The notes under the pieces were generated by a model, which saw nothing but the letters and a program-made list of their open reading frames with translations, was not told where the DNA came from and ran no database searches. DNA of 64,000 bases from Caulobacteraceae bacterium (GTDB lineage: Bacteria > Pseudomonadota > Alphaproteobacteria > Caulobacterales > Caulobacteraceae). The first letter of the stretch is position 1. The number at the start of each line of letters is the position of its first letter. Below are positions 7,562 through 46,603 of the stretch, in pieces. The position numbers and the translations under genes are program-made. The DNA lies in assembly GCA_019247715.1 (NCBI GenBank), contig JAFBAO010000107.1, positions 24,377 through 88,376 of the forward strand. Reading direction: 5' to 3'.

Positions 7562-9629
7562 TCTTGATCATCGGGTTCACCGCCGGACCGGCGGTGTCCT
7601 TGTAGGGGTCGCCGACGGTGTCGCCGGTCACCGCGGCCTTGTGGGCCTCGGATCCCTTGCCGCCGTGGTGGCCTTCTTCGATCAGCTTCTTGGCGTTGTC
7701 CCAGGCCCCGCCGCCGGAGGTCATCGAAATGGCGACGAAGAGGCCGGTGACGATGACGCCCATGAGCATGGCGCCCAGGGCGGAGAAGGCCTCCGTTTTG
7801 CCGGCGATGGACCGGATCACGTAGAAGAGCACGATCGGCGAGGCCACGGGGAGCAGCGAGGGAACCACCATCTCGCGGATGGCGGCGCGGGTGAGGATGT
7901 CCACCGCCCGGCCGTATTCGGGCTTGACCTCATAGGTCATGATGCCCGGGTTCTCCTTGAACTGGCGGCGCACCTCGGCGACCACCGATTCGGCCGCCCG
8001 GCCCACCGCGGTCATGGAAAGCCCCCCGAACAGGAACGGCAGCAGGCCGCCAAACAGCAGACCCACGACCACGTAGGGATTGCTGAGGTCGAAACGCACC
8101 TCGCCCACGTCGGCGAAGAACGGGAAGGCGCCGGAATTGGCCGAGAAGAAATGCAGGTCCTGGGTGTAGGCGGCGAAGAGGACGAGGGCGCCCAGGCCCG
8201 CCGAGCCGATCGCGTAGCCCTTGGTGACCGCCTTGGTGGTGTTGCCCACCGCGTCCAGCGCATCGGTGGACACCCGCACATCGCCCGGCAGGCCGGCCAT
8301 CTCGGCGATGCCGCCGGCGTTGTCGGTGACCGGACCGAAGGCGTCCAGCGCGACGATGAAGCCCGCCAGGGACAGCATGGCGGTGGTGGCGATGGCGATG
8401 CCAAAGAGGCCGGCCAGGTTATAGGTGACGATGATGCCGGCGATGATCACCAGCGCCGGCGCCGCCGTGGACTCCAGCGACATGGCCAAGCCCTGGATCA
8501 CGTTGGTGCCGTGGCCGGAGACCGAGGCCTTGGCCACCGACTTGACCGGCCGGAAGCCGGTGCCGGTGTAGTATTCGGTGATCACCACGATGGCCGCGGT
8601 GACCAGCAGGCCCGCCAGGCCGCAGAAATAGAGCGCCATCGCATCGAAGGTCTTGCCCCCGGCGCTCAGCGGACCGGTGGGGACGAGCTTGGTGATGACG
8701 AAGTAGAGCGCCGCCGCCGAGAGCACGCCGGTGACGATGAGGCCCTGGTAGAGGGCGCCCATGATGTTGCGGCTCTTGCCGAGACGGACGAAGAAGGCGC
8801 CGATGATCGAGGTGACGACGCACGCCCCGCAGACGGCCAGCGGCAGCTCCATCATCGTCGCGGCCAGGCCGCCGGTGAAGAAGATCGCCGCCAGCACCAT
8901 GGTGGCCACGGTGGTCACCGCATAGGTCTCGAAGAGGTCGGCGGCCATGCCGGCGCAGTCGCCCACGTTGTCGCCCACGTTGTCGGCGATGGTGGCGGCG
9001 TTGCGCGGATCGTCTTCCGGAATGCCGGCCTCGACCTTGCCGACCATGTCGCCGCCGACGTCGGCCCCCTTGGTGAAGATGCCGCCGCCGAGGCGGGCGA
9101 AGATCGAGATCAGCGAGGCGCCGAAACCGAGCGCCACGAGGGAATCCACCACCTCGCGGCTGGTGTTCTCCAGATGCAGGGCCTGGGTGAGGATGAGGTA
9201 GTAGACCGACACGCCCAGCAGGGCGAAGCCGGCCACCAGCATGCCGGTCACCGCGCCGGACCGGAACGCCAGGGAGAGCCCCTGGGCCAGGCCCTTCGAG
9301 GCCGCCTCGGCGGTGCGGACGTTGGCCCGCACCGAGATCAGCATGCCGGCGAAGCCCGCCGCGCCCGAAAGGGCCGCCCCGATCAGGAAGCCGAGCGCCG
9401 CATAGGGCCCGATCAGAAAGTACACGGCGACGAGGATCACCAACCCGACGCCGGCGATCGTCGTGTACTGGCGGCGCAGATAGGCCTGGGCGCCCTCCTG
9501 GATCGCCGCGGCGATTTCACGCATCCGCTCATTGCCCGCCGGGGCCCGCAAGAGAGCGGCGGACTGGGCCACGCCGTAGAGCACGGCCAATGCGCCGGCG
9601 AGGATCACCAGCATCAGAACAGAACTCAT
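7503..9629 (-). CDS. hppA: Membrane H+-translocating pyrophosphatase, K+-independent type
   Basis: [41 protein letters not shown] motifs; [10 protein letters not shown] carries the Lys of K+-independent enzymes. Confidence 0.95.
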
Positions 9630-9802
9630 TTAATTGCGCCCCTCTTCTGCGCCGACAGCCGCACTCGCTTATCCGGCGAGGCGGACTGATGGCCAAAATC
9701 CCGCTTCGGGTGAGCGAGGGGCGGGCCCCTCGAAAAAAGTCGGCGGAAACTGCCAAAACCCTCCGCCGGACGCAACAGGGCGTCCGTTTCGATCCGAAAA
9801 AC

Positions 9803-10225
9803 TCAGCGCGCCGCGAGTTTAGGCTTGGGGAGGCCGGTGCGGCGCATGGGTCCTCCGCCAGGCAGGATTTCGATGGAGGCGATGCTTCCGGGACCACCGA
9901 TCGCCACCGCCGCCTGGTAAAGGGCCGCCTTCAGCTTGCCCTCGTCGAGCCGCGTGTAGTCGTCGTAGCGCGTGAACGGGGTTCGATGGGCGGCGCGCAC
10001 CAGGGCGTCCCGGAAATAGGGCTCCTTGTCACGGAGCTTCGGCATGTCGGCCGACCCGGTCAGATTGATGCGCAGATAGACGAAGACGTAATTGATCAGC
10101 CGCCCGTCCGCCGCCACCGGCAACGCCACGGGGGCCAGGTCCACGTACTGGCCGGCCTGCTCGGCCATGGCCGCGCCGGCGGCCAAGGCGAGAGGAAGGC
10201 TGAGCAGCAGACGGCGGCGACGCAT
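9803..10225 (-). CDS. Exported hypothetical protein, FliL-like beta-rich domain
   Basis: RRRRLL plus hydrophobic stretch and AMA cleavage site; YVDLAPVALPV...YVFVYLRINL...LRDKEPYFRDALV resembles the FliL C-domain. Confidence 0.55.
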   Translation of the reverse strand: MRRRRLLLSLPLALAAGAAMAEQAGQYVDLAPVALPVAADGRLINYVFVYLRINLTGSADMPKLRDKEPYFRDALVRAAHRTPFTRYDDYTRLDEGKLKAALYQAAVAIGGPGSIASIEILPGGGPMRRTGLPKPKLAAR

Positions 10226-10297
10226 GGGCGGTATCCGAATCGGTTCGGCCGATTAGGCCCGTCGAACCCTTGCCACCGGGTTTCCGGCCCAAGGGAG

Positions 10298-11266
10298 CTA
10301 GCGGTGCCGCCAGCCGAGCGCGCCGGGCTGCAGCGCCACCCCGTCCGCGACCACCTCGAGGCCGGGCGCCTCGGTGAAGCTCCCCACCACCGCGGCCGCG
10401 ATCCCGAGGCCCTCGGCCGCCCTCGCCAGGGCCTCGCCGTCGGCGGCCGCGCAGACGAGAGCGTAGTCGTCCCCGGCGCTGGCCAGCTGCAGGATCGCCG
10501 CCGACCGGTCCGCCTGTCGCTGCAGCCAGGCCCGCGCCGGCTGCGAGAGAGGCGTTCGCCCGAGGTCGATCCTCGCCCCGCAGCCGCTCGCCTCGGCCAC
10601 GTGCATCGCGTCGGCCAGCAGGCCGTCGGAAACATCGGCGGCGGCGGCGGCGTGCGATCGCAGAGCCTCGCGCAGAACCAGCAGGGGCTCGGGCAGGCGA
10701 TAGTGGCGCGCGAGCGCCCCGCCGGGATCGGAAAGCTCGCCGCGCGCCGCCTTGAGCCCGAGCAGGCCGTCGCCGATCGCCCCGCACGCCACCAGCGCGT
10801 CGCCCGGACGGGCGCCCGAGCGGCGCACCATGGCGCCGGCGGGAACCCAGCCGAGCATGGCGGCGTCCACGGTCAGCGGGCCCGGCGTGGCGGCCGTATC
10901 CCCGCCGAGCAGGGCGAGACCGAACCGATCCCCGTCCTCCGCCAGCCCCCGGATGAAGGCCTCGCGGTCCGCCCAGGGCCGGCCTTCGGGCCAGGCGGTC
11001 ATGAGGAAATATCCGAATGGCTCGGCGGCCTTGGCCGCCAGATCCGAGAGGTTGGTGCGCAGCAGCCGCCGCGCCACGATGTCCGCCGCTTCGCCGGCCA
11101 GGAAATGCACGCCCTCCACCATGGCGTCCTGGGTGACCACCAGATCGAACCCCGGCCGGCTGGGCAGAACGGCCGCGTCGTCCATCAGACCCAGCGCCTC
11201 GGCCGCGCCCCGCGTCAGGGGCCGCAGCGCGGCGATCCAGTCGAATTCGTCAGGCGCCGCGGGCAT
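10298..11266 (-). CDS. thiL: Thiamine-monophosphate kinase
   Basis: [48 protein letters not shown]. Confidence 0.93.
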
Positions 11267-11702
11267 CCCGCGCCACGCCGTCCAGGGCCGCATTGACGAA
11301 GCCCGCCTCGGGACCGTCGAAGAACGACTTGGCGATCTCGACGTACTCGTTGATCGCGACCTCGGCCGGAACGTCCGCGCGGCGCATGAGCTCGTAGGCG
11401 CCGGCCCTCAGGATCGCGCGGGCGGTGGCGTCGATGCGCTCCAGCCGCCAGTCCTTGGCGAGCCGCCGGCTGACCGCCTTGTCGATGGGCGCCTGGTCGG
11501 CCACTACGCCGCGAACCAGCTCGCCGAAGAAGGCCTCGTCGGCCTGGGCCAGCCGAAGCCCGTCAAGATCCCGGTCGAAGCGATGCTCGCCGAACTCGCG
11601 GATCACCGCCTCGACGCCGGCGCCGGCGGTCTCCATCTGGTAGAGCGCCTGGACGGCTGCCAGGCGCGCCACCGACCGCGCCTGCCGGGGGGGCGGATTC
11701 AT
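11250..11702 (-). CDS. nusB: Transcription antitermination factor NusB
   Basis: [39 protein letters not shown]. Confidence 0.95.
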
Positions 11703-11834
11703 GGCGGCGCACACCCGGCGCCGGGCCGCGCTGAGGTCGGGAGGTCGAAGGAGTCAGCGAGCATGGCGGGGCCTTGCGGAGAAAGGCCGCAGCCTACGAC
11801 GCCGACGCCCGCCCCGTCCAACAGCCGTGCGTGC

Positions 11835-34603: not shown

Positions 34604-35599
34604 CTAAAGGGCGCGGGTGGCGCGCAAGGACTTGGGCCTGGGTCCCCCAAGAGGAGCCTCGTCAGCCCCTGCGTCCGCCGCCTGGCCGAGCCAAGCCCGA
34701 TAGACCGCCACCGCCGCCGGGCGCCACCGGCGGACCGGTCGGGACCCGTCCAGGATCTCCAGGAAGGCGGGCAGCAGCGCCGGGTCGGACCGCAGGCGCG
34801 CCTGGGCGGTCAGCCGCTCCAGAGCCTGCTCGCTCTCGGCGTCGAGATAGCCAGCCGGCATGGCCGGCAGCCGCCCGCCGTTTCGGAAGAACCGCCCGAG
34901 GTCGCGGCCGTATTCGCGCAGCAGGCTGTCGGCTTCGTATTCCGGATGCCCCTGAAAGTAGAGCGACGCGCTTTCGCTCGGGCCCAGGAAGGCGTCCACG
35001 CCGGCGGTCGGCGAACGGCTCAGGATCTCATAGCCGGCGCTGACGAGATCCGCCTCGGCCAGGTCGTTCCAGCGCGAATGAGGAACCCAGAAGGCGTGGC
35101 TCAGGCCCTCGGCGAGGGGATGATCGCTGGCCGGCGCGCATGGGAACACCCCGCTCAGCTTTTCCGCCAGAGGCCGGCGGCGCACGCCTGCCTGATGCAG
35201 GACCGCCGCGTGGGCCGCCAGGCACGACCATACGGTGGGGACCCGCGCCGCCTCGGTCCAGTCGACCACCCGGCGAAGGTCGTCCCAATAGGGCTCGTCC
35301 TCGAGCGAGGCGGTGCGCGGCTCGGCCCCCGTGACGATGAGCCCGTCGAGGCCGGCGCCCGCCAGCGACCCGGCGTCGGCGTAGCGTCCTCGCATCTGCT
35401 CCCGGGCCCGCTCGCCCCTTTCAATCGCCGGCAAGGCGAAGAGGCGCAACTCCACGGAGAACTCGGTTCCCGCCTCCGCGAGCAGCCCCTCGAACTGGGC
35501 CTCGGCGGTCGCCAGCGCGCTGTCTCCGAGATTGTTGAGAAGACCGATGCGCAGCCGGCGCCGGCCGCCTCTCCTGGGCTCCTTGACGAGCGGGCTCAT
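34604..35599 (-). CDS. metA: Homoserine O-acyltransferase, MetA (HTS) family
   Basis: IGLLNN, DGLIVTGAEP, YWDDL, WSCLAAHA (catalytic Cys), PHSRWN, FQGHPEY; overlaps the metY stop. Confidence 0.85.
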   Translation of the reverse strand: MSPLVKEPRRGGRRRLRIGLLNNLGDSALATAEAQFEGLLAEAGTEFSVELRLFALPAIERGERAREQMRGRYADAGSLAGAGLDGLIVTGAEPRTASLEDEPYWDDLRRVVDWTEAARVPTVWSCLAAHAAVLHQAGVRRRPLAEKLSGVFPCAPASDHPLAEGLSHAFWVPHSRWNDLAEADLVSAGYEILSRSPTAGVDAFLGPSESASLYFQGHPEYEADSLLREYGRDLGRFFRNGGRLPAMPAGYLDAESEQALERLTAQARLRSDPALLPAFLEILDGSRPVRRWRPAAVAVYRAWLGQAADAGADEAPLGGPRPKSLRATRAL

Positions 35600-36885
35600 G
35601 GCCGCTTGCCGGCCAGCGCACCCGCCAACGCTTGGTCGAGATCGCCGATGATGTCGTCCACGTGCTCGATGCCGACGCAGAGCCGGATCATCTCGGGCGT
35701 CACCCCCGCCTTGGCGCGCTCGTCGTTGGTCATCTGCCTGTGGGTGGTGGAGGCCGGGTGGCAAGCCAGCGACTTCACGTCGCCGATGTTCACCAGCCGC
35801 TTGATGAGGCCGAGGCGGTCGTAGAAGACCTTGGCCGTCTCGAACCCGCCCGCCACGCCGAAGGTCAGCAGCGAGGGCGGGGTTCCGCGGAGATACTTCT
35901 GGGCGAGCTCGAAGTAGGGGCTCTCGGCGAAGCCCGCATAGCTCACCCACTCGATGCGCGGATCGGCCTTCAGGAATTCGGCGACCCGGCGGGCGTTCTC
36001 CACGTGCCGCTCCACCCGCAGCGCCACCGTCTCGATCCCCTGCAGCAGCAGGAAGGCGTTGAGCGGCGCCAGCACCGCCCCGGTGGTGCGCTGATAGACG
36101 CTGCGGATGCGCGCGGCGTAGGCGGCGGGGCCGAAGCGTTCGGTGTAGACGAGACCGTGATACGAGGCGTCCGGCTCGCTGAACATCGGGAACCGCGCCC
36201 GCTGGGCCGCCCAGTCGAAACGGCCGCCATCGACAACGACGCCGCCCATGGTGGTTCCGTGTCCGCCCATGAACTTGGTCAACGAATGAACCACGATGTC
36301 GGCGCCATGCTCGAAGGGGCGAAGCAGGATCGGGGTCGCCACCGTGTTGTCGACGATGAGGGGAACGCCGTGCCGATGGGCGGCCTCGGCGATGCCCGCG
36401 ATGTCGCAGATGTTGCCGGCCGGATTGCCGACGCTTTCGCAGAACACCGCCCGCGTATTTTCGTCGATGAGCCGCTCGATCGCTTCGGGGCTGTCGCTCT
36501 CGGCGAACCGCCCCTCGATCCCCTGCCTTGGAAGGACGTGCGAGAGCAGGGTGTGGCTCGTCCCATAGAGCTGCGGGGTTGAGACGATGTTGCCGCCGCG
36601 GTCCGCCAGGTTCACCAGGGCGTAGTGCAGCGCCGCCTGGCCCGAGGCGACCGCCACCGAAGCTGCGCCGCCCTCGAGCTCGGTCACCCGGGTCTCCAGG
36701 ATCGTGGTGGTGGGATTGGCGATCCGGCTGTAGCGGTAGCCCTCGACCTCGAGGTTGAACAGGGCCGCGCCGTGGTCGGCGCTCTCGAAGGCGTAGGCGG
36801 CCGTCTGATAGATCGGGACCGCGACCGCCCGGGTGGCCGGGTCGCAGTCGAAGCCGCTGTGGACGGCGATGGTCTCCCGGCGCAT
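35596..36885 (-). CDS. metY: O-acylhomoserine aminocarboxypropyltransferase (sulfhydrylase)
   Basis: AVPIYQT, YSRIANPT, VDNT, HSLTKFMGGHG (PLP Lys), NIGDVKSL..HPASTTH. Confidence 0.9.
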   Translation of the reverse strand: MRRETIAVHSGFDCDPATRAVAVPIYQTAAYAFESADHGAALFNLEVEGYRYSRIANPTTTILETRVTELEGGAASVAVASGQAALHYALVNLADRGGNIVSTPQLYGTSHTLLSHVLPRQGIEGRFAESDSPEAIERLIDENTRAVFCESVGNPAGNICDIAGIAEAAHRHGVPLIVDNTVATPILLRPFEHGADIVVHSLTKFMGGHGTTMGGVVVDGGRFDWAAQRARFPMFSEPDASYHGLVYTERFGPAAYAARIRSVYQRTTGAVLAPLNAFLLLQGIETVALRVERHVENARRVAEFLKADPRIEWVSYAGFAESPYFELAQKYLRGTPPSLLTFGVAGGFETAKVFYDRLGLIKRLVNIGDVKSLACHPASTTHRQMTNDERAKAGVTPEMIRLCVGIEHVDDIIGDLDQALAGALAGKRP

Positions 36886-37037: not shown

Positions 37038-38819
37038 ATGCCCCCTGAGACCGAGGCGATTGCAAAGCCCGCGCTGCGCTCCGCGAACAAGGACTGGCTG
37101 CGCGCGCTGGAAATGACCGGCCGCCTGGAAGCGCGGCCGAACCGCATCCTGCCGAGCGTAATCGACGAGCAGGCAGAGCGGCTGGGCGAGGCGCCGGCCC
37201 TGCTTTCGGAAAGCGAGACCCTTTCGTTCCCGGCCCTGGCCGGGCGCGTCCGACGCTACGGGCGGTGGGCCCTGGAGAGCGGACTGGGCAAGGGCGACGT
37301 CGTCGCCCTGCTGATGCCGAACCGTCCCGAATACCTGGCCGCCTGGCTCGGGCTCACGCGGGTGGGCGTCGTGACGGGCTTGCTCAACCCTGAGCTCCGA
37401 GGCGCCTCTCTGGCGCACTGCGTGGGTGTCGCGCGCGCCAAGCGGATCATCGTGGACGCGCGGCTGGCGGGCGGCCTGCTGGAGGCCATCGGCGTCGAAG
37501 GGCCGCCGATCGTCGTTCACGGCGAAGGCTGGAGCGGCCTGCCGCGGATCGATCTGGAGCTCGCGACGCTTCCGGCCGAGGCGGCGGGGCCGGAGGTCAC
37601 CCTCGCCGACCCGGCCCTGCTCATCTACACCTCCGGCACCACCGGTTTGCCCAAGGCGGCGCGGGTCAGCCACCACCGGGTCATGAGCTGGAGCTACTGG
37701 TTCGCGGGCCTCGCCGACATCCGGCCCACCGACCGGCTCTACGACTGCCTGCCGCTCTGCCACAGCGCTGGCGGCGTGGCGGCGGTGGGCGCGGCGCTGG
37801 TCGGCGGCGCCTCGACCGTCATCGCCCCGAAATTCTCGGCCAGCCGCTTCTGGGACGAGGTGACGGACTGGGAGTGCACCCTCTTCCAGTACATCGGCGA
37901 GCTCTGCCGCTATCTCCTGGCCGCGCCGCCTCACCCGAGGGAACGGGCGCATCGCCTGAGGCTCTGCTGCGGCAACGGCCTGGCCGGCGACGTCTGGACC
38001 GCGTTCCAACAGCGCTTCGCCGTCCCCCAGATCCTGGAGTTCTACGCCGCCACCGAGGGCACGTTCTCGCTCTACAACGTGGAGGGAAAGCCCGGGGCGA
38101 TCGGGCGGGTGCCGCCGCTCCTGCGGCATCGGTTCCCGGCGGCGATCGTCAAGTACGACGCCGACGCCCGCGCGCCGGCCCGCAACCCCGAGGGCTTCTG
38201 CATCCCCTGCGCCAGCGGCGAGGCGGGAGAGGCCATCGGCCGGATCGCCTCCCAGGGAACCGGCCGGTTCGAGGGCTACACCGACATTGCCGAGAGCCAG
38301 AAGAAGCTGCTGCGCGACGTCTTCGCCCCCGGCGACGCCTGGTTCCGGACCGGCGACCTGATGCGCCAGGACGACCAGGCTTTCTGGTATTTCGTCGACC
38401 GGATCGGCGACACTTTCCGCTGGAAGGGAGAGAACGTCTCCGCCGCCGAGGTCGCCGAAGCTCTGCGCGCCTTCCCGGGGATCCGGGACGCCAGCGTCTA
38501 TGGCGTCGTCGTTCCCGGCGCCGGCGGGCGGGCCGGCATGGCCGCGGTGGTCGCCGGCCCCGATTTCGATCTCGCCGTCCTGCCGGCGCACCTGGCGGCG
38601 CGCCTCCCGGACTACGCGAGACCGGTCTTCCTGAGGCTCGTCCCGACGCTGGCGGTGACCGAGACCTTCAAGCCGAAGAAGGCGGCGCTGGCCGAGGAGG
38701 GCTATGATCCGGGCCGCTCGGACGATCCCCTCTACCTCTACGACCGCGAGCGGGGAGCCTATGTGGGTCTGGATGCGGACCTTCTCGCGCAGGTCCGAGA
38801 GGGGCGACTGCGCCTCTGA
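37038..38819 (+). CDS. Long-chain acyl-CoA synthetase (FATP/SLC27-like)
   Basis: IYTSGTTGLPKAA, FQYIGELCRYL, WFRTGDL, DRIGDTFRWKGENVS. Confidence 0.9.
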   Translation: MPPETEAIAKPALRSANKDWLRALEMTGRLEARPNRILPSVIDEQAERLGEAPALLSESETLSFPALAGRVRRYGRWALESGLGKGDVVALLMPNRPEYLAAWLGLTRVGVVTGLLNPELRGASLAHCVGVARAKRIIVDARLAGGLLEAIGVEGPPIVVHGEGWSGLPRIDLELATLPAEAAGPEVTLADPALLIYTSGTTGLPKAARVSHHRVMSWSYWFAGLADIRPTDRLYDCLPLCHSAGGVAAVGAALVGGASTVIAPKFSASRFWDEVTDWECTLFQYIGELCRYLLAAPPHPRERAHRLRLCCGNGLAGDVWTAFQQRFAVPQILEFYAATEGTFSLYNVEGKPGAIGRVPPLLRHRFPAAIVKYDADARAPARNPEGFCIPCASGEAGEAIGRIASQGTGRFEGYTDIAESQKKLLRDVFAPGDAWFRTGDLMRQDDQAFWYFVDRIGDTFRWKGENVSAAEVAEALRAFPGIRDASVYGVVVPGAGGRAGMAAVVAGPDFDLAVLPAHLAARLPDYARPVFLRLVPTLAVTETFKPKKAALAEEGYDPGRSDDPLYLYDRERGAYVGLDADLLAQVREGRLRL

Positions 38820-39749
38820 TCAGCCGATCAGGCCGCGCAACTGCGCCCCGATCGCGGTCGCCGCCGCCTCGCCGTAGGGAATCGCCTGCGCCAGCGCATA
38901 GAAGTAGTGAATCATCCCTGCGTGGCAGGTCTCTTCCACCTTCACACCGGCGCCCTTCAGTCGCCCGGCGTAGGCCGTGCCCTCGTCCCGGAACGGATCG
39001 AACTCGGCCGTATGCAACAGCGTCGGCGGGAGTCCCTCGAAGCTGGCCGCCTGCAGCGGAGAAAGGCGCGGATCGCGACGATCGAGAGGCGGCGGGCAAT
39101 AGGCGTCGACATCCCGGTCCATGGTCGCGCGACTGAGGAAGAAGCCCTCGGAGAGGGCGCGCCGCGATTCCGACTCTTCGGCGAGGTCGAGGATCGGGCA
39201 GATCAGCAGTTGGGCGGCGATCATCGGGCCGCCTTGGTCCCGGAGCGCGGCGCTGGCGGCGGCGGCGAGGCCCCCGCCGGCCGAATCCCCCCCGATCGCC
39301 AGCCGATCCGGATCGATCCCCAGCTCCGCCGCCTTGTCCCCCACCCACCGCACCGCGGCCAGAGCGTCGTCGAACGCGGCCGGGAAAGGGTGTTCCGGCG
39401 CGAGCCGGTAGTCGACCGCGACCACGGTCAGGCGCGCGGCCTCGGCGAGCCGCCCGCAAAGGCCCCCATGCGTCTCGGCGCCCCCGGCGACCCAGCCCCC
39501 GCCGTGGAGGAAGACCAGCGCCGGCTGCGGTCCATCCGAAGCCTCTGCAGGCGCATAGAGGTCGAGCCCGACAGCGCCCCCGGGGCCGGGCGCCTCCAGG
39601 CGGCGGACGGGCGCGCGGCCAGGGCGATCGGCCATCTGCGCCAGGGCTCGCAGGCCCTCGCGCCGCGCGGCCGCCGTCGCCTCCGCGCCCGCCGAACCGC
39701 CGGCCGCCAGCATGTCCAGAAGGCGCTGGGCGCGGCGATCGAGCGGCAT
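38820..39749 (-). CDS. Alpha/beta hydrolase, HSL family esterase
   Basis: HGGG oxyanion motif, GDSAGG nucleophile, EFDPFRDEG, GMIH. Confidence 0.92.
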   Translation of the reverse strand: MPLDRRAQRLLDMLAAGGSAGAEATAAARREGLRALAQMADRPGRAPVRRLEAPGPGGAVGLDLYAPAEASDGPQPALVFLHGGGWVAGGAETHGGLCGRLAEAARLTVVAVDYRLAPEHPFPAAFDDALAAVRWVGDKAAELGIDPDRLAIGGDSAGGGLAAAASAALRDQGGPMIAAQLLICPILDLAEESESRRALSEGFFLSRATMDRDVDAYCPPPLDRRDPRLSPLQAASFEGLPPTLLHTAEFDPFRDEGTAYAGRLKGAGVKVEETCHAGMIHYFYALAQAIPYGEAAATAIGAQLRGLIG

Positions 39750-39758
39750 GAGGGAAAG

Positions 39759-40025
39759 CTAGGCCGCCAGGCCGATGGCGTCCACCAGGCGGCAGATGGC
39801 GTCTATGCTGCGGAAGTTCGCCGGCGTCATCTGCTTCTGGGGAATCTCGATGCCGAAGGCGTCTTCCACCGCGAGCATCAGATTGACCATGTCCAGCGAG
39901 GTGAGGCCGAGCTCCGTCAGGTCGTGAGCCGGATCCAGCGGACCGGCGATCCCCCGCCGGGCCATGACCCCTTCCACGATGCCGGTGATCGTCGCCTGCG
40001 CCGACGCTGTAGACCCCTGCCCCAT
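39759..40025 (-). CDS. Carrier protein 1 (phosphopantetheine-binding; likely cognate of the aa:CP ligase)
   Basis: LGLTSLDMVNLMLAVEDAFGIEIPQKQMTPANF; Ppant Ser in GLTS. Confidence 0.88.
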   Translation of the reverse strand: MGQGSTASAQATITGIVEGVMARRGIAGPLDPAHDLTELGLTSLDMVNLMLAVEDAFGIEIPQKQMTPANFRSIDAICRLVDAIGLAA

Positions 40026-40112
40026 CTCAACACCCCAACGGCGCCGCGGCGCCACACTTTCGTCCCATTCCGGACCGGTTCCAACGACCGTCCTATTCGG
40101 GATTGCGCGGGT

Positions 40113-40128
40113 TGCAAGCGGCAAGCCA
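40113..40128 (-). promoter_or_regulatory. Putative sigma54 promoter for carrier protein 1 and the esterase
   Basis: Minus strand TGGCTT-GCCGC-TTGCA. Confidence 0.6.
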
Positions 40129-40201
40129 CCAGGCGGCGAAGTCCGCGCCATGATTGAGCGTCGAATAGGCTCGGCGGCCCAGTGACGAACCGCTTGCCGG
40201 G

Positions 40202-40217
40202 TGGCATGGGGATTGCT
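40202..40217 (+). promoter_or_regulatory. Sigma54 promoter for the ACAD-ligase operon
   Basis: TGGCAT-GGGGA-TTGCT, near-perfect consensus, 64 nt before ATG 40282. Confidence 0.75.
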
Positions 40218-40281
40218 GATCTGGCGTCCGAGCAAGCGACGTCGCCACCTTTCGGCCGTCGGATGAATCAGGGATCAGCGT

Positions 40282-41496
40282 ATGGGCGTTCAAGACTTCC
40301 ACCGGGCCAGCGAGCCAAGCACGGTCGCGAAGGGTCCGATCGTCGCCGAGCCGCTGATGGCGCGCGCCGCGCGCGCCGCCGCCGTCGCGGCCGCACACGC
40401 CGAGGCGGTCGATCGCGACGCGCGCTTTCCTGCTGAAGCGATCGCCGCCGCCAAGGCCGAGGGACTGTTGGGGGTCATGGTCCCGGCTTCGCTGGGCGGC
40501 GAGGGGCTCGGCCTTCGCCAGGTGATGGAGGTCTGCTACACGCTCGGCCGAGCCTGCGCGTCGACGGCGATGATCTACGCCATGCACCAGGTGAAGGTGG
40601 CGTGCGTGGTCCGCCATGGCGTGGGCAGCGCCTGGCACGAGGACTTCCTGCGGCGCCTGGTGCGCGAGCAGCTCTTGCTCGCCTCCTCCACCACCGAGGG
40701 ACAGGGCGGCGGCAACGTCCGCTCCAGCGAAGCGCCGATCGAGCGGTCCGGCGACCGGATCTCGCTGGTCCGGGCGGCGAGCGTGATCTCCTACGGCGAA
40801 GCGGCCGATGCGGTGGTCACCACCGCCCGCCGGGCCCCCGATGCGTCGGCCTCCGACCAGGTGCTGACGGTGTTCCTGCGCGCCGATTACAGCCTGGAGC
40901 GCAATCTGGAGTGGGACACGCTCGGCATGCGCGGCACCTGCAGCGCCGGGTTCACCCTGCGGGCCGAGGGCGAGGCCGCGCAAATCCTGCCGGTCGCCTA
41001 CGAGACCATCCACGCCCACAGCATGGTTCCGGCCGCCCACATCCTCTGGTCCAGCACCTGGGCCGGCGTCGCCGCTTCCGCGGTGGAGCGGGCGCGGCGC
41101 TACCTGCGCAAGGCCGCCGCGGCCGGGGCCCTGCCGCCGAGCGCCCCCTATTTCACCCGCGCCAACGGCGAGCTGAGGGCGCTGCGGGCGCTGATCGCCG
41201 CCGCGGTCGATCGCTACGAGGCGGTCATGGACCAGCCTGACGCCCTTTCGGCGATGGATTTCCAATCGCAGATCAGCCTGCTGAAGGTGGACACCTCGGA
41301 ACTGGCGGTCTCGGCGGTGATGAGCGCCATGCGTTGCTGCGGGCTCTCCGGCTACCGCAACGACTCTGACGCCTCCATCGGACGGCGACTGCGCGACATC
41401 CTCTCGGCGCCGATCATGATCAACAACGACCGCATCCTGGCCAACGTCGGCGCTTCGGCGCTGCTGACCGAGGTGGCGGCCTCCATCAAGGACTGA
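40282..41496 (+). CDS. Acyl-CoA dehydrogenase-fold flavoprotein (atypical)
   Basis: AVDRDARFP, CASTAMIYAMH, SSTTEGQGGGN, WDTLGMRGTCS, RRLRDILSAPIMINND. Confidence 0.85.
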   Translation: MGVQDFHRASEPSTVAKGPIVAEPLMARAARAAAVAAAHAEAVDRDARFPAEAIAAAKAEGLLGVMVPASLGGEGLGLRQVMEVCYTLGRACASTAMIYAMHQVKVACVVRHGVGSAWHEDFLRRLVREQLLLASSTTEGQGGGNVRSSEAPIERSGDRISLVRAASVISYGEAADAVVTTARRAPDASASDQVLTVFLRADYSLERNLEWDTLGMRGTCSAGFTLRAEGEAAQILPVAYETIHAHSMVPAAHILWSSTWAGVAASAVERARRYLRKAAAAGALPPSAPYFTRANGELRALRALIAAAVDRYEAVMDQPDALSAMDFQSQISLLKVDTSELAVSAVMSAMRCCGLSGYRNDSDASIGRRLRDILSAPIMINNDRILANVGASALLTEVAASIKD

Positions 41497-41499
41497 ACC

Positions 41500-42411
41500 G
41501 TGAACGACATGCCCAGATTCCAAGGCAAGGCGGACACCCTGAAGGAGGGGCTTTTCCTGCCCAGCGGCGTGGACGGGATCTACGCCCGCACCGGCCTTTA
41601 CGAGGGGGTGGTGGAGTCGCTCGCCGCCCTGATCTCTTCGGAGCGTCCCGCCGGCGCCGAGGTGCTGCGGTTCCCGCCCGTGATGAGCCGCGCCCAGATC
41701 GAGCGGCACGGCTACCTGAAGAGCTTTCCGAACCTCCTGGGCTGCGTCAGCTGCCTGACCGGCGACGAGCGGCATATCCGCGGCGTCGTCCAGCGGTTCG
41801 AGGAGGGCGCCGATTGGACGAGCGAGCTCGGGGCGGCCGATCTGGTGCTGGCCCCGGCGGCCTGCTATCCGGTTTACCCTCTGGCCGCCGCCCGGGGAGC
41901 GGTCCCCGCCGAAGGCCTCACCTTCGACGTGGCCGCCGATTGCTTCCGGCGTGAGCCTTCCACCGACATCGACCGCTTCCAGTCCTTCCGGATGCGCGAA
42001 TATGTCCGCATCGGCTCGCCCGAGCAGATCCACGCGTTCCGCGAGGCGTGGATCGGGCGGGCCAAGAGCCTCGCCGACCGTCTCGGCCTCGGCTACCGCA
42101 TCGACCTCGCCAGCGACCCCTTCTTCGGACGCGGCGGGGCGATCGTGGCCGCCAGCCAGATCGAGCAGGCGCTCAAGTTCGAGTTGCTCATCCCGGTGCG
42201 CTCCGAGGCCGAGCCGACCGCCTGCATGAGCTTCAACTACCACCAGGACCACTTCGGGCTCACCTGGGACCTGCGAACCGGCGACGGCGGCCCCGCCCAC
42301 ACCGGCTGCGTGGCCTTCGGCATGGACCGGCTGGCCGTCGCCATGTTCGCCACCCACGGTCTCGATACGGACGCCTGGCCGGCGGGCGTGCGAAAGGCGT
42401 TGAAGCTCTGA
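41500..42411 (+). CDS. Amino acid:[carrier protein] ligase (truncated atypical SerRS homolog)
   Basis: GYLKSFP, PAACYPVYP (Zn Cys), motif 2 CFRREPS, FRMREYV (Zn Glu), SDPFFGR, SFNYHQDHFG, HTGCVAFGMDR (Zn Cys, motif 3); no tRNA-binding domain. Confidence 0.92.
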   Translation: MNDMPRFQGKADTLKEGLFLPSGVDGIYARTGLYEGVVESLAALISSERPAGAEVLRFPPVMSRAQIERHGYLKSFPNLLGCVSCLTGDERHIRGVVQRFEEGADWTSELGAADLVLAPAACYPVYPLAAARGAVPAEGLTFDVAADCFRREPSTDIDRFQSFRMREYVRIGSPEQIHAFREAWIGRAKSLADRLGLGYRIDLASDPFFGRGGAIVAASQIEQALKFELLIPVRSEAEPTACMSFNYHQDHFGLTWDLRTGDGGPAHTGCVAFGMDRLAVAMFATHGLDTDAWPAGVRKALKL

Positions 42412-42486: not shown

Positions 42487-43296
42487 ATGGGCTACGAGGC
42501 CGCCCTGGCGGGCTACGAGAAGTTCGACTTCCGCGACGGGCGCTGGACCAGACCCGTCTGGCGACGCGGATCGGGGCCGGCGGTGATCGTGATCCATGAG
42601 ATGCCGGGCCTGCATCCCGGCGTGATCGCCTTCGCGGACCGGGTGGCGGCGGCCGGCATGACCGTGTTCTGCCCTGTCCTCTTCGGGGTCGCCGGTCGAC
42701 CGATGACCCATCCTGGCGGGCTCCTCACCATGCTCGGGGGCCTTTGCATCCGGCGCGAGTTCGCCGTCTGGTCCGCGGGACGCTCGAGCCCGATCGTGGA
42801 TTGGCTGCGCGCCCTTTCGCGCCAGGCCCGCGCCGAGTGCGGCGGCAAAGGGGTGGGCGCGGTGGGCATGTGCTTCACCGGCGGCTTCGCCCTGGCGATG
42901 ATGACCGAGCCGGCCGTGACCGCCCCGGTGCTCTCGCAACCCTCTCTGCCGATGGCGCCCGGGAGCCGGCGCCGCGCGGCCGGCGTCGACGCCTCGGCCG
43001 CCGAGATCGCCTGCGCCCGACGGCGCTTCGCCGAGGAGGACCTCTCGATGATCGGGCTGCGCTTCCTGGGCGACCCCATGGTCCCGGACGCCCGGTTCGA
43101 CACCCTCAAGCGCGAGTTCGGCGACCGGTTCGAGGCCATCGAGATCGAGCCGCAGGACGCGGCCCCCGGGCCCCTCAAGAACCCCCATTCGGTGCTGACC
43201 GCCAACCTCGCCGAAACTGGCCCCACCAAGGCCGCCGAGACGCGGGTGATCGCCTTCTTCCGCGAGCGGACCGGCGCAGGGGCCGTGAACCCATAG
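42487..43296 (+). CDS. Dienelactone hydrolase family protein
   Basis: VIVIHEMPG, GAVGMCFTGG (Cys nucleophile), HSVL. Confidence 0.85.
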   Translation: MGYEAALAGYEKFDFRDGRWTRPVWRRGSGPAVIVIHEMPGLHPGVIAFADRVAAAGMTVFCPVLFGVAGRPMTHPGGLLTMLGGLCIRREFAVWSAGRSSPIVDWLRALSRQARAECGGKGVGAVGMCFTGGFALAMMTEPAVTAPVLSQPSLPMAPGSRRRAAGVDASAAEIACARRRFAEEDLSMIGLRFLGDPMVPDARFDTLKREFGDRFEAIEIEPQDAAPGPLKNPHSVLTANLAETGPTKAAETRVIAFFRERTGAGAVNP

Positions 43297-43298
43297 GC

Positions 43299-44030
43299 TC
43301 AGGCCGTGTTGCCGGCGTCGATGGTCAGCACGGTGCCGGTGATGTTGCGCCCGCCCTCGCCCATCAGGAACTCGACGGCGGCGGCGATGTCCTCCACCTC
43401 GGCGAGCCGGCGAAGGGCGCTGCGCCGGACGATCTTTTCGAGCCCGCCCTCGCCCATGCCCTCGGTCATGTCGGTCTCGATGAAGCCCGGAGCGACGGCG
43501 TTGACGGTGACGCCGAGACGGCCGACCTCCCTGGAGAGGGATTTGGTGAACCCGATCATCGCCGCCTTGGTCGCCCCATAGGCGGCCAGGGAGTTGTAGC
43601 CGTTCGAGCCGACGATCGAGGACATGTTGATGATCCGTCCGCCGTCGGCCTCGGTCATCATGGTGCGGATGACATACTTGGTCAGCAGGATGGGCGCGGT
43701 GACGTTGACCCGGATCAGCGTGTCGATCTGGGAGTTGTGCATGTTGGTAAGCAGCGCCCCGTCGCCGACGCCGGCGTTGTTGACGAGTCCGTAGATGCCG
43801 CCGAACTCGGCCTTCAGCTTGCGCACCAGCTCGGGAATGCCCTCGACATCGGAAAGGTCGTAGGGGACGAAGCGGATCGATCCCGGCGCCTCGGCGATGG
43901 CCGCGCTGAGCTCCGCGTTCGGATTGCGGGCGAGGGCGATCATGTAATAGCCGGCCCCGGCGAGCCTGCGCACGATCGCCAGGCCGATGCCCCGGCTTCC
44001 CCCGGTCACGAGCACATTACGCAACGCCAC
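43299..44030 (-). CDS. FabG-like SDR oxidoreductase
   Basis: TGGSRGIG, NNAG, YGATK, VNAVAPGFIETDM. Confidence 0.92.
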   Translation of the reverse strand: MALRNVLVTGGSRGIGLAIVRRLAGAGYYMIALARNPNAELSAAIAEAPGSIRFVPYDLSDVEGIPELVRKLKAEFGGIYGLVNNAGVGDGALLTNMHNSQIDTLIRVNVTAPILLTKYVIRTMMTEADGGRIINMSSIVGSNGYNSLAAYGATKAAMIGFTKSLSREVGRLGVTVNAVAPGFIETDMTEGMGEGGLEKIVRRSALRRLAEVEDIAAAVEFLMGEGGRNITGTVLTIDAGNTA

Positions 44031-45414
44031 GCTCCAGCTTGCCCCCGGCGGTCATCGCCAGCGTCGGCACGATACGCACAGACGCCGGCGTTTTGAAGGG
44101 CGGCAGGGCTTCGCGGCAAGCGCGAAGCACCTCTTCCTTCACCTTCGCCTCGTCGGTCCCCTGGCGCAACGCCTGCTCAGTGAGCACCAGCTCGGCGATC
44201 ACGATCGCCCCGGTGATCGGGTTGCGCCGTCCGCGCACCAGCGACATCCGCACCGCCGGATGGCGGTTGATCACCGCCTCTACCTCTTCGGGATGCACCT
44301 TGAGGCCCCCGACGTTGATGACCCCGTTGCGGCGGCCGACGAAGTGGTACCGCGCGCCCCTGAGCTCCACCATGTCGCCGCTGTCGACGAAGCCGTCCGG
44401 CTCGGCCAGCGGCGCAGCGCCCTCGCCAAGATAGCGGCTGGCGATGCGGGTCGACTTCAGTCTGAGCGAGCCGTCCTCGACCTTGAGGCGGACGGGGCCA
44501 TCGGCCTCCAGCAGGCTGGCCGGGAAGCCCTCGAGACCGTCGGTGACCTCGAACCCGACCCCGGCCTCCGTGGAGGCGTAGGCGTGGCCCATGGGAACGC
44601 CGGGAAAGAAGTCGCGCAGACTGTCCAGAATTGCCTGATCGGCGATCTCGCCCGACAGCCGCACGTACCGCGGATGGAGCGCCTTGGCGGCCGGATTCAT
44701 CAAGGCCCAGCGCCAGTGGGAAGGCGTGCCGGTGAGATGGGTGACCTGGTGGCGCGCCAGCCGGTCGAGGAAGCTCCCCATCGGCTCGTCCGGCCCGGTG
44801 AGCACCAGCGATCCCTCGGACAGCAGGGCGCGCAGCAGGATCTGCAGGCCGCCGTAGCGGCGGACATCGTAGAAGGTGCCCCAGGTCGGCGCCGGCGCGT
44901 CAGGGGCAGGCCGCTGGATGGCGCCGCTCAGCCCCGCGAGGGTGTGGACCACCATCTTCGGCCGGCCGGAGGTGCCAGAGGTGAACATCACCCACTCGGT
45001 CACCTGCTCTTCGTGCGTCTCGCCCGCCAGGGGGGTCTTCGGCCTGACGATCGGCGCGAAGGCCAGGCCCGAGAGCGCCGCCGGCGGGGCCTTTTCCGAC
45101 ACCACCGCATCCAGCGCCGCGACCTCGGCCACGTAGGGGAGATGCTCCTCCTCGAGATCGGGAGGGCAGATCACCAGGCGCGAGGCGACCCCATCCAGCT
45201 CCACCAGGGCGAGGGCCGCGAACAGCGGATCTTTCACCCGGACAAGCACCGAACGGCCCGCCAGGCCCGCGAGCGTCTGGCCGAGACCGGTGCCGTAGGC
45301 GACGTCGCCCAGCCGCACCCGGCGCCGTGCCCCCCAGAGCCAGCGGTCGCCCAGGCGTTGGGAGGTCGTCAGGGTTCGGCGGAGCGGCGCGGGATCAGGG
45401 CGTGGCGTTCTCAT
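44017..45414 (-). CDS. ANL-superfamily adenylate-forming ligase (acyl-AMP/acyl-carrier ligase)
   Basis: FTSGTSGRPK, YASTEAG, DSGD, GRRNGVINVGGLKVHPEEVE, C-terminal GGKL. Confidence 0.88.
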   Translation of the reverse strand: MRTPRPDPAPLRRTLTTSQRLGDRWLWGARRRVRLGDVAYGTGLGQTLAGLAGRSVLVRVKDPLFAALALVELDGVASRLVICPPDLEEEHLPYVAEVAALDAVVSEKAPPAALSGLAFAPIVRPKTPLAGETHEEQVTEWVMFTSGTSGRPKMVVHTLAGLSGAIQRPAPDAPAPTWGTFYDVRRYGGLQILLRALLSEGSLVLTGPDEPMGSFLDRLARHQVTHLTGTPSHWRWALMNPAAKALHPRYVRLSGEIADQAILDSLRDFFPGVPMGHAYASTEAGVGFEVTDGLEGFPASLLEADGPVRLKVEDGSLRLKSTRIASRYLGEGAAPLAEPDGFVDSGDMVELRGARYHFVGRRNGVINVGGLKVHPEEVEAVINRHPAVRMSLVRGRRNPITGAIVIAELVLTEQALRQGTDEAKVKEEVLRACREALPPFKTPASVRIVPTLAMTAGGKLERGVA

Positions 45415-45634
45415 AGAAGCGAATAAAGTCGCCCACGGTCACCGGGAAATAAACGTCTTCCGACAGGCTGAAGGGGTCAAACCCCAGTTCATCCTCTAGG
45501 ATCGCCACGATGATCGCGAAGCAAAGGGAATCCAGTCCCGACTCCAGCAGGGTGAGCCCGTCCGAAAGCGTCGCCAGGGTACGGTCCTGGGCCACGGCCA
45601 CCCGGCGGAACGCCGCCAGGATCGTCGCGCGCAC
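45395..45634 (-). CDS. Carrier protein 2 (acyl carrier protein)
   Basis: LLESGLDSLCFAIIVAILEDELGFDPF; GTG start at 45634 preferred, upstream ATG 45733 also possible. Confidence 0.82.
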   Translation of the reverse strand: MRATILAAFRRVAVAQDRTLATLSDGLTLLESGLDSLCFAIIVAILEDELGFDPFSLSEDVYFPVTVGDFIRFYENATP

Positions 45635-45745
45635 GGAGCCCGGCTCGCCCTCGAAAGGCGTTTCCGGAGCGCACGCTTCTTGCTCACCGGCGTCCAAGGC
45701 GCCTTGCCCGCGCTCCCTGGTCGCATCGTTCATGGTCCGCTCCTA

Positions 45746-46603
45746 ATGCCGCCGTCGCCGCAAGTCCGTTGCCGCCAGATCCGGGAAGCCGACCTGACGC
45801 AGGTCGCCGACCTCCTGACCCGAGGCTTTCCAAAGCGCGCTCGCAAATATTGGACCAGCGGTCTGGAGCGCCTCGCGGCCTGCCCGATCATCGAGGGTTG
45901 TCCGAGATTCGGCTATCTTCTGGAGGCCGACGGCGAGGTGGTCGGCGCCCTGCTGCTGATCTTCCACCAGACAGGCGCGGGAGCGGACGCCCGAATCCGC
46001 TGCAACGTGTCGAGCTGGTATGTGGAGCCGGCGTTCCGTAGCCATGCGCCGCTCCTCGTTTCCCTGGCCCTGAAGCTGAAGCACGTCACCTACGTGAACA
46101 TCTCGGCCGCCGTCCACACCCTCCCGATGCTGAAGGCGCAGGGGTACAGCCTTTACAGCCAGGGCCAGTTTGTCGCCATCCCCGCCCTGGCGGCCGCAGG
46201 TCGGGTGCGCGCCCGGTTCTTAGGCGCCGGCTCGGACCTCGTTCCGCCCGAGCGGGAGTTGATCGAAACGCATGTGGCCGCCGGCTGTGTGGCGGTGATT
46301 TGCGAGACCGACGGGGACGCGCTGCCCTTCCTCTTCGCCCGTCGCCGCATCGCCTACGCGCCCTTCGGGGTCCTCCAGCTCGTCTACTGCCGGGACACCG
46401 CCGATTTCTCGCGCTGCGCCGGCGCCATCGGTCGGCTCCTTTTGGCACGCGGGGTCCTGGCGGTGCTTTGCGACGCCGACGCCCCGCTCGCGGGCCTCCC
46501 CGGCTTCCTTTTCAGGAACAAGGGCGCGAGGCATTTCAAAGGTCCGGACCGGCCGCGCCTCAACGACCTTTCCTACACCGAGCTCGTCCTCTTCGGCGCC
46601 TGA
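45746..46603 (+). CDS. GNAT/Fem-like acyl- or aminoacyl-transferase
   Basis: IREADL..VADLL..GF, GYLLEADGEVVG, NVSSWYVEPAFR; length consistent with a tandem GNAT fold. Confidence 0.65.
   Translation: MPPSPQVRCRQIREADLTQVADLLTRGFPKRARKYWTSGLERLAACPIIEGCPRFGYLLEADGEVVGALLLIFHQTGAGADARIRCNVSSWYVEPAFRSHAPLLVSLALKLKHVTYVNISAAVHTLPMLKAQGYSLYSQGQFVAIPALAAAGRVRARFLGAGSDLVPPERELIETHVAAGCVAVICETDGDALPFLFARRRIAYAPFGVLQLVYCRDTADFSRCAGAIGRLLLARGVLAVLCDADAPLAGLPGFLFRNKGARHFKGPDRPRLNDLSYTELVLFGA

Follow-up and report, generated by a model that had tools for sequence, protein, structure and literature searches.

Ligases of the aa:CP type (amino acid:[carrier protein]) load Gly or Ala onto carrier proteins and do not charge tRNA (PMC5370406). 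Their biological role was still called unknown in reviews as late as 2022 (PMC9437257). The closest described systems are the pair Bll0957/Bsr0959 of Bradyrhizobium japonicum (PDB entries 3mey and 4h2s) and the Ala-preferring pair Atu2573/Atu2571 of Agrobacterium tumefaciens. Here we describe a further ligase gene, located at positions 41500-42411 in a stretch of 64,000 nucleotides from a Caulobacteraceae bacterium (assembly GCA_019247715.1, contig JAFBAO010000107.1, positions 24,377 to 88,376 of the forward strand). This whole stretch, hereafter the window, has a G+C content of about 70% and its closest relatives are Caulobacterales. Judged by its sequence, the encoded protein is orthologous to Bll0957, a Gly:CP ligase. 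It is likely to act as an AMP-forming aa:CP ligase that loads one of the small amino acids, with glycine the likeliest, onto a nearby encoded carrier (carrier 1), which would be its dedicated partner. The finding amounts to a transfer by homology from the known Bll0957 system to a further member, and annotation pipelines already name such genes: the closest database relatives of the ligase are labelled amino acid--[acyl-carrier-protein] ligase, and so are related NCBI records. The genes and sites that carry the assignment are the following (position in the window, strand, description).

41500-42411, plus strand: amino acid:[carrier protein] ligase; GTG start, 303 amino acids (aa), class II aminoacyl-tRNA synthetase catalytic core without tRNA-binding domain
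41863-41865, plus strand: Cys122 of the ligase Zn triad, in PAAC; codon checked
41998-42000, plus strand: Glu167 of the Zn triad, in MRE; codon checked
42307-42309, plus strand: Cys270 of the Zn triad, in HTGCVAFGMDR; codon checked
42313-42315, plus strand: Ala272 (GCC), proposed size-gate residue, two residues past Cys270
42130-42174, plus strand: ligase residues 211-225 (RGGAIVAASQIEQAL), aligning with the segment altered in PDB entry 4h2w
39759-40025, minus strand: carrier 1, Bsr0959-type aminoacyl carrier; 88 aa, Pfam PP-binding
39897-39899, minus strand: phosphopantetheine Ser43 of carrier 1, in GLTSLD

The ligase scores 464.9 bits with the NCBIfam model NF005479 ("amino acid--[acyl-carrier-protein] ligase"; cut-off 357), of which it covers positions 24-316 of 318, and a genome-wide search with the same model returned it as a single copy (465.8 bits). 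The PDB sequence of Bll0957 (3mey) is matched at E 7e-132, a similarity well outside what chance would give. In a multiple alignment the two proteins are 66% identical, without gaps around the motifs, and the blocks PAACYPVYP, FDVAADCFRREPS, QSFRMREYV, ASDPFFGR, PTACMSFNYH and AHTGCVAFGMDRLAVAMF are shared unchanged, whereas the N-terminus of the window ligase is about 23 residues shorter. Residue n of the window ligase corresponds to residue n+29 of the PDB chain, and to native residue n+9 only if a 20-residue tag is assumed. With that tag, C122, E167, C270 and A272 align with C131, E176, C279 and A281, which we take to be the triad and the alanine of Bll0957. A first-pass annotation of the DNA had already read a Zn triad from PAAC, MRE and TGC, with an Ala two residues after the last Cys (Cys+2) that it equated with Ala281 of the B. 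japonicum enzyme. The open reading frames and motifs are found where it placed them, and the alignment agrees with the equivalence, again with the 20-residue tag assumed. Among 96 full-length representatives of the family the first Cys of the triad is present in 96/96, the Glu in 93/96 and the second Cys in 89/96. By orthology, the ligase would use the Zn held by Cys122, Glu167 and Cys270 to bind a small amino acid, with glycine as the best candidate, and would convert it with ATP to the aminoacyl-adenylate. The aminoacyl group would then be passed not to tRNA but to the thiol of the phosphopantetheine that Ser43 bears in holo-carrier 1.

Glycine as the predicted substrate to be loaded onto carrier 1 is well supported by orthology, because the ligase groups with Bll0957 in a clade of which all members carry Ala at Cys+2. 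This clade, which was found in a quick maximum-likelihood tree of the representatives (SH-aLRT support 96), consists of the window ligase, Bll0957 and a Methylorubrum representative (P0121), none of the other representatives exceeding 51% identity. Ala272 is proposed to narrow the side-chain pocket, and relatives with Gly at this site would have room for a methyl or a larger group. Among the 96 representatives Gly was found at Cys+2 in 53 and Ala in 39. The close orthologs of the window ligase read HTGCVAFG in 82 out of the 82 sequences with a readable motif, and therefore have Ala at Cys+2 throughout. Ala is also found in a second Bradyrhizobium ligase paralog, probably Bll6282, which is 81% identical to Bll0957 and reads HTACVAFG. 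Gly occupies the site in the archaeal seryl-tRNA synthetase (SerRS; TGCAGLG), an enzyme that has to accommodate serine. Gly is likewise found in representative P0123 (HTACVGFG), whose helix is nearest to the Atu2573-derived segment of 4h2w, and for which the identification with the Agrobacterium enzyme rests solely on 14/16 matching helix residues.

The carrier was assigned along the same lines. Carrier 1 (GLTSLDMVNLMLAVEDAFGIEIPQKQMTPANFRS) has its best solved-structure match in Bsr0959, deposited as "aminoacyl carrier protein 1" in PDB chain 4h2s_C (GLTSMDMVNLMLGVEAEFDFTIPQSEITPENFQS; E 6.8e-15), and the pairwise comparison yielded 43% identity over 69 aa (E 2e-22). The second-best PDB match is the carrier domain of Bmp1 (6cxt complex), and the Agrobacterium carrier Atu2571 (2jq4, 4h2w_C) is matched at E 3e-5 only. 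The open reading frame listed for carrier 1 (39759-40235) is too long; since the orthologs span 85-93 aa, the ATG at 40025 is most likely the true start. We compared 87 loci, 80 from species genomes and seven from the genus of the window (including the window's own copy and one split gene). In 76 of these a carrier-1 homolog adjoins the ligase and the gene that precedes it, which encodes a flavoprotein of the acyl-CoA dehydrogenase (ACAD) fold; the carrier gene is nearly always divergent and lies about 1.8 kb upstream of the ligase. A hidden Markov model (HMM) built from 73 syntenic carrier-1 orthologs gave 107.5 bits for carrier 1 and 111 for Bsr0959, versus 5.1 for the second carrier encoded in the cluster (carrier 2). 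In the genome, carrier 1 is the sole carrier resembling NF005480 (60 bits vs 32.5 for the next best). On account of the synteny, the family HMM scores and the uniqueness of this carrier in the genome, it is well supported that the ligase pairs with carrier 1 and an ANL adenylate-forming ligase with carrier 2. The first-pass annotation had likened carrier 1, and not carrier 2, to B. japonicum CP1 (Bsr0959), which the HMM scores and the PDB matches bear out. Its description of the carrier as encoded divergently from the ligase needs to be amended: carrier 1 does lie on the opposite strand, but it is divergent to an operon of the ACAD-like gene and the ligase, not to the ligase alone. Only one match to a phosphopantetheinyl transferase (Pfam ACPS) was found genome-wide (G000:C30:34449-34733), and activation of AcpP as well as of carriers 1 and 2 would therefore fall to the same enzyme.

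Several points weigh against glycine and carrier 1 as the substrate and the dedicated partner of the ligase. To our knowledge, only three ligases of the family have been characterised, so that the link between Ala at Cys+2 and a preference for glycine would be drawn from very few enzymes. We also know of no assays in the family with other than canonical amino acids, and the physiological substrate could be another small amino acid. The ligase family is, moreover, said to have been described by Mocibob et al. in 2010 as having a relaxed amino acid specificity. Carrier 1 itself scores below the cut-off of NF005480 (60.6 vs 72 bits). Finally, the segment that is presumably the carrier-recognition helix (residues 211-225; RGGAIVAASQIEQA in the window) differs from that of wild-type Bll0957 (RVGQMKAVSQKQQQ) at 8 of 14 positions. 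These include six of the seven positions that were changed in 4h2w (RAGKMLANNQRDQQ), the crystal structure of a Bll0957 variant together with the Agrobacterium carrier. Given this divergence, the details of recognition are not transferable from the B. japonicum structure, and a cross-reaction with Bsr0959 is not to be assumed. The segment is highly variable among the orthologs, and carrier recognition is probably lineage-specific. Paired residues in helix and carrier (K-Q with NFQS in the Bradyrhizobium carrier, x-E with NFRS in most others) follow the lineages and were not used as evidence.

The likeliest of the alternatives is that the protein is an aa:CP ligase for carrier 1 with a substrate other than glycine, such as alanine, beta-alanine, sarcosine or a D-amino acid, the rule derived from Ala272 being too weak. 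The family does load Gly or Ala (PMC5370406), and the Cys+2 site is labile. Its state changes 14 times on the family tree by parsimony and at least 4 times when only the changes forced by well-supported branches are counted, whereas label shuffles give 27.7 changes; by these numbers the site appears to be a recurrent two-state Ala/Gly switch and not a lineage marker. In addition, the ACAD-fold neighbour would have no obvious reaction to perform on glycine, which is without a beta-carbon. Nevertheless, we consider a different substrate unlikely. The clade shared with the Gly-preferring Bll0957 is well supported and comes with identical motif blocks, the Ala is invariant in the readable close orthologs, and an ACAD-fold enzyme in which both glutamates are missing (see below) need not be an alpha,beta-desaturase. 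The A281G replacement reportedly shifts the selectivity of Bll0957 toward Ala, as the first-pass annotation noted, and the comparisons at Cys+2 fit this rule.

A second alternative concerns the carrier. It holds that the ligase is promiscuous, with carrier 2 as an additional or the main acceptor, so that a single aminoacylating enzyme would serve both carriers of the cluster. Carrier 2 belongs to the following module of three overlapping genes (Pfam AMP-binding, adh_short).

45395-45733, minus strand: carrier 2
45395-45634, minus strand: carrier 2 with the alternative start, an internal GTG
44017-45414, minus strand: ANL adenylate-forming ligase
43299-44030, minus strand: SDR reductase

The two carriers are encoded less than 6 kb apart in one conserved cluster, and the carrier-binding helix has diverged from that of Bll0957. 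Carrier 2, however, is of another family: besides its low score on the carrier-1 HMM, it has no significant match to either of the solved aminoacyl carriers and no match in Pfam, PP-binding included, while an HMM for carrier 2 gave 122 bits for carrier 2 itself and 7.9 for carrier 1. It is always linked to an ANL ligase, and the order carrier 2, ANL, SDR is conserved in 40-49 of the 87 loci. Moreover, the entire module is absent from the Bradyrhizobium loci, where only carrier 1, the ligase and the genes for the ACAD-like and a tandem-GNAT protein are retained. Because of the family mismatch and the ANL ligase next to it, carrier 2 was rejected as partner of the ligase, and loading of carrier 2 by the latter is very improbable; carrier 2, as a member of that other family, would be loaded by the ANL ligase of its own module. 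The carrier 2 orthologs measure about 81 aa and share a conserved GLDSL(C/G)FA motif, and the true start of carrier 2 may be the internal GTG at 45634.

That the protein is a truncated or auxiliary SerRS acting on tRNA, as might be read from the label seryl-tRNA synthetase given to relatives in some source databases and from a match to the archaeal-type enzyme (E 1e-16), is hardly credible, and a housekeeping or auxiliary role of this kind was rejected: the match to 3w3s is confined to chain residues 310-505 (the catalytic core) in a 303-aa protein that has no tRNA-binding domain, the scores are far under the cut-offs (74.3 bits vs 611 for NF002120, 62.1 vs 489.55 for TIGR00415), a canonical serS is found on another contig (490 bits), and the characterised homologs do not charge tRNA (PMC5370406). 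The relation to the methanogen-type SerRS (3w3s, 2cim) is nonetheless a real one, with a homologous class II core, an amino acid site that depends on Zn, and Cys, Glu and Cys at matching positions. The window ligase differs from it by the missing N-terminal tRNA-binding domain, by Ala instead of Gly at Cys+2, and by a carrier thiol as its predicted target.

The comparison with the described systems can be extended to the surroundings of the ligase, for which the remaining features of the cluster are needed.

40282-41496, plus strand: ACAD-fold flavoprotein; Pfam Acyl-CoA_dh_N and Acyl-CoA_dh_1; followed after a 3-bp gap by the ligase
40026-40281, no strand: divergent intergenic region of 256 bp between carrier 1 and the ACAD-like gene
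40113-40128, minus strand (toward carrier 1), and 40202-40217, plus strand (toward the ACAD-like gene and the ligase): sigma54-type -24/-12 matches TGGCTTGCCGCTTGCA and TGGCATGGGGATTGCT to TGGCWYN5TTGCH
45746-46603, plus strand: conserved tandem-GNAT-fold protein; listed as an open reading frame from TTG 45680, which would overlap the carrier 2 start, the orthologs supporting ATG 45746
38820-39749, minus strand: hormone-sensitive-lipase-type alpha/beta hydrolase (esterase); Pfam Abhydrolase_3 (E 1.7e-73), 10 bp downstream of carrier 1
42487-43296, plus strand: dienelactone-hydrolase-family gene, downstream of the ligase; Pfam DLH
37038-38819, plus strand: long-chain acyl-CoA synthetase; NF006134 725 bits (cut-off 625), forming a divergent pair with metY

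The gene order of the window is found again in Bradyrhizobium, at loci with 94-96% identity to the PDB sequence: a carrier gene on the minus strand is followed by the ACAD-like gene and the ligase on the plus strand, and a gene for a tandem GNAT is not far away. Only the cluster of the window, and not those loci, contains the carrier 2-ANL-SDR module, the esterase behind the carrier, the DLH gene and the predicted sigma54-type promoters. With the pair Atu2573/Atu2571 the window shares the ligase family and the chemistry, and there too genes for a carrier and an ACAD-like protein are adjacent. The window carrier is nevertheless much nearer to Bsr0959 (E 7e-15), Atu2571 being matched at E 3e-5, and P0123 has Gly at Cys+2.

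A different type of cluster was found within the genus of the window itself. There, a Gly-site ligase that is 50% identical to that of the window (locus L096, G020:C1:231000-250900, 9441-11800) belongs to an operon whose genes all run in one direction and encode a carrier, an ACAD-like protein, the ligase, a DUF1839 protein, a glycosyl-hydrolase-2-like protein and an alpha/beta hydrolase. Another carrier-like match and a gene for an M20 peptidase lie close to it. The tandem GNAT is missing from this locus and DUF1839 and the glycosidase-like gene are found in its place; a relationship between DUF1839 and the tandem GNAT was considered and rejected (hhalign probability 0.1). A 2010 paper (PMC2922099) predicted, in a note added in proof, that in the Agrobacterium cluster the aminoacyl group is modified by a redox enzyme and an amide is formed by a tightly linked unknown open reading frame, Atu2574. 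The neighbourhood in L096 agrees with the one given for Atu2574 in that paper. The different downstream partners that Ala-site and Gly-site ligases have here support the assignment of the window to the Bll0957 type.

The window ligase alone matters little, being a routine ortholog of an enzyme that has been characterised both structurally and kinetically, and the predicted specificity and pairing are those that orthology would give, with nothing new on the ligase family. The value of the locus lies in its context. The family is very common, with at least 7,970 clusters (90% identity) at E 1e-10 and 2,426 sequences of the representative library at E <= 0.001, and two exact scan motifs are present in at least 585 species genomes. 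Two types of cluster can be separated, the Bll0957 or Ala-site type with a tandem GNAT, and the Gly-site type in the window's own genus with DUF1839 and the glycosidase-like gene. Together with the recurrent switch at Cys+2 they provide concrete handles on the pathway.

The ACAD-like gene adjoins the ligase in 83 of the 87 loci. Alignments with SCAD and IVD show that its product has no Glu at either of the two positions of the catalytic base (the IYEGT motif reads IMINN, and Glu254 of IVD aligns with Ala), and it is thus probably not a standard alpha,beta-dehydrogenase. The protein is weakly similar to the prolyl-ACP dehydrogenases 4irn and 6cxt_B, which oxidise carrier-bound proline, and it also resembles the ACAD-fold oxygenases DszC and nitrososynthase; modification of a carrier-bound aminoacyl group is its probable function. 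A parallel is provided by the pyrrole trios PltF/PltL/PltE and Bmp4/Bmp1/Bmp3 (6cxt), in which an amino acid is placed on a free-standing carrier and is then oxidised by an ACAD-fold enzyme. Carrier 1 and the ACAD-like protein show weak matches (E 1e-5 to 1e-6) to Bmp1(CP), PltL, Bmp3 and the prolyl-ACP dehydrogenase. In contrast to these trios, the loading enzyme of the window is a homolog of class II aminoacyl-tRNA synthetases and not an ANL adenylation domain, and the predicted glycine cannot form a pyrrole.

The tandem-GNAT protein had no match in Pfam or NCBIfam, and a sequence-profile search of the PDB chains came back empty. Its AlphaFold2 model (pLDDT 92, pTM 0.85) was matched by Foldseek to Eis, VipF, N-myristoyltransferase and the clavulanate tandem GNAT (E about 1e-9, TM about 0.5), on the basis of which we predict with high confidence that it is a tandem GNAT; the modelled fold resembles that of N-myristoyltransferase. 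A homolog is present in 60 of the 87 loci, and in Bradyrhizobium it directly follows the ligase. The conserved core thus consists of the carrier, the ACAD-fold enzyme, the ligase and the tandem GNAT, to which many lineages add the second carrier-ANL-SDR module, the esterase, the long-chain acyl-CoA synthetase and metY.

From the gene order we would expect that the glycyl-S-carrier 1 is next modified by the co-transcribed ACAD-fold flavoenzyme. Oxidation or oxygenation at the C-N bond would be more likely than desaturation, as the usual catalytic glutamates are missing, and the tandem-GNAT protein, again going by gene order, could then handle the intermediate by acyl or aminoacyl transfer. A more specific proposal, which we put forward tentatively and regard as rather unlikely, is that the ligase opens a conserved alphaproteobacterial pathway built on this core, in which the GNAT could either N-acylate the carrier-bound glycine or transfer an oxidised glycyl unit to an acceptor, yielding a lipoamino-acid-like or envelope-modifying product. 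If true, such a lipoamino-acid or envelope pathway would be the first biological role for aa:CP ligases.

The other neighbours are less regularly associated with the ligase. A homolog of the alpha/beta hydrolase, a candidate release or transfer enzyme, was found in 26 of the 87 loci at variable positions. The long-chain acyl-CoA synthetase, which is loosely linked to the cluster, lies no more than 7 kb away in 29 of them, as MetY does in 21. For the DLH gene the sole match among the 87 loci was the window's own copy (L001); the gene is probably outside the conserved system and looks like a local insertion. The pattern TGGCWYN5TTGCH occurs twice in the window, versus 0.17 matches expected, and both occurrences are located between carrier 1 and the ACAD-like gene. 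Similar sigma54-type sites were found in the eight closest Caulobacterales loci and in none of the Bradyrhizobium, Xanthobacteraceae and Methylobacterium loci, and the predicted sigma54-type control therefore looks lineage-specific.

Within the genus the ligase was found in 6 of 25 genomes, its own included, and it was absent from 16 other genomes of the order; it is an accessory gene in the genus. In another genome of the genus (L006/L007, G003:C2:115711-116590) the ligase yields two partial matches that adjoin each other, one at 116099-116590 (model positions 26-188) and one at 115711-116100 (model positions 188-317), which suggests a frameshift, a pseudogene or an assembly error.

Finally, the divergent pair of metY (35596-36885 in the window, minus strand) and the acyl-CoA synthetase gene accompanies the cluster in the Caulobacterales and the Xanthobacteraceae. 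The second Bradyrhizobium ligase paralog (L093-L095 in G041-G043) is directly followed by a metY homolog as well, 72-73% identical to that of the window. The recurrence of metY suggests that the cluster is functionally linked to O-acetylhomoserine sulfhydrylase chemistry.

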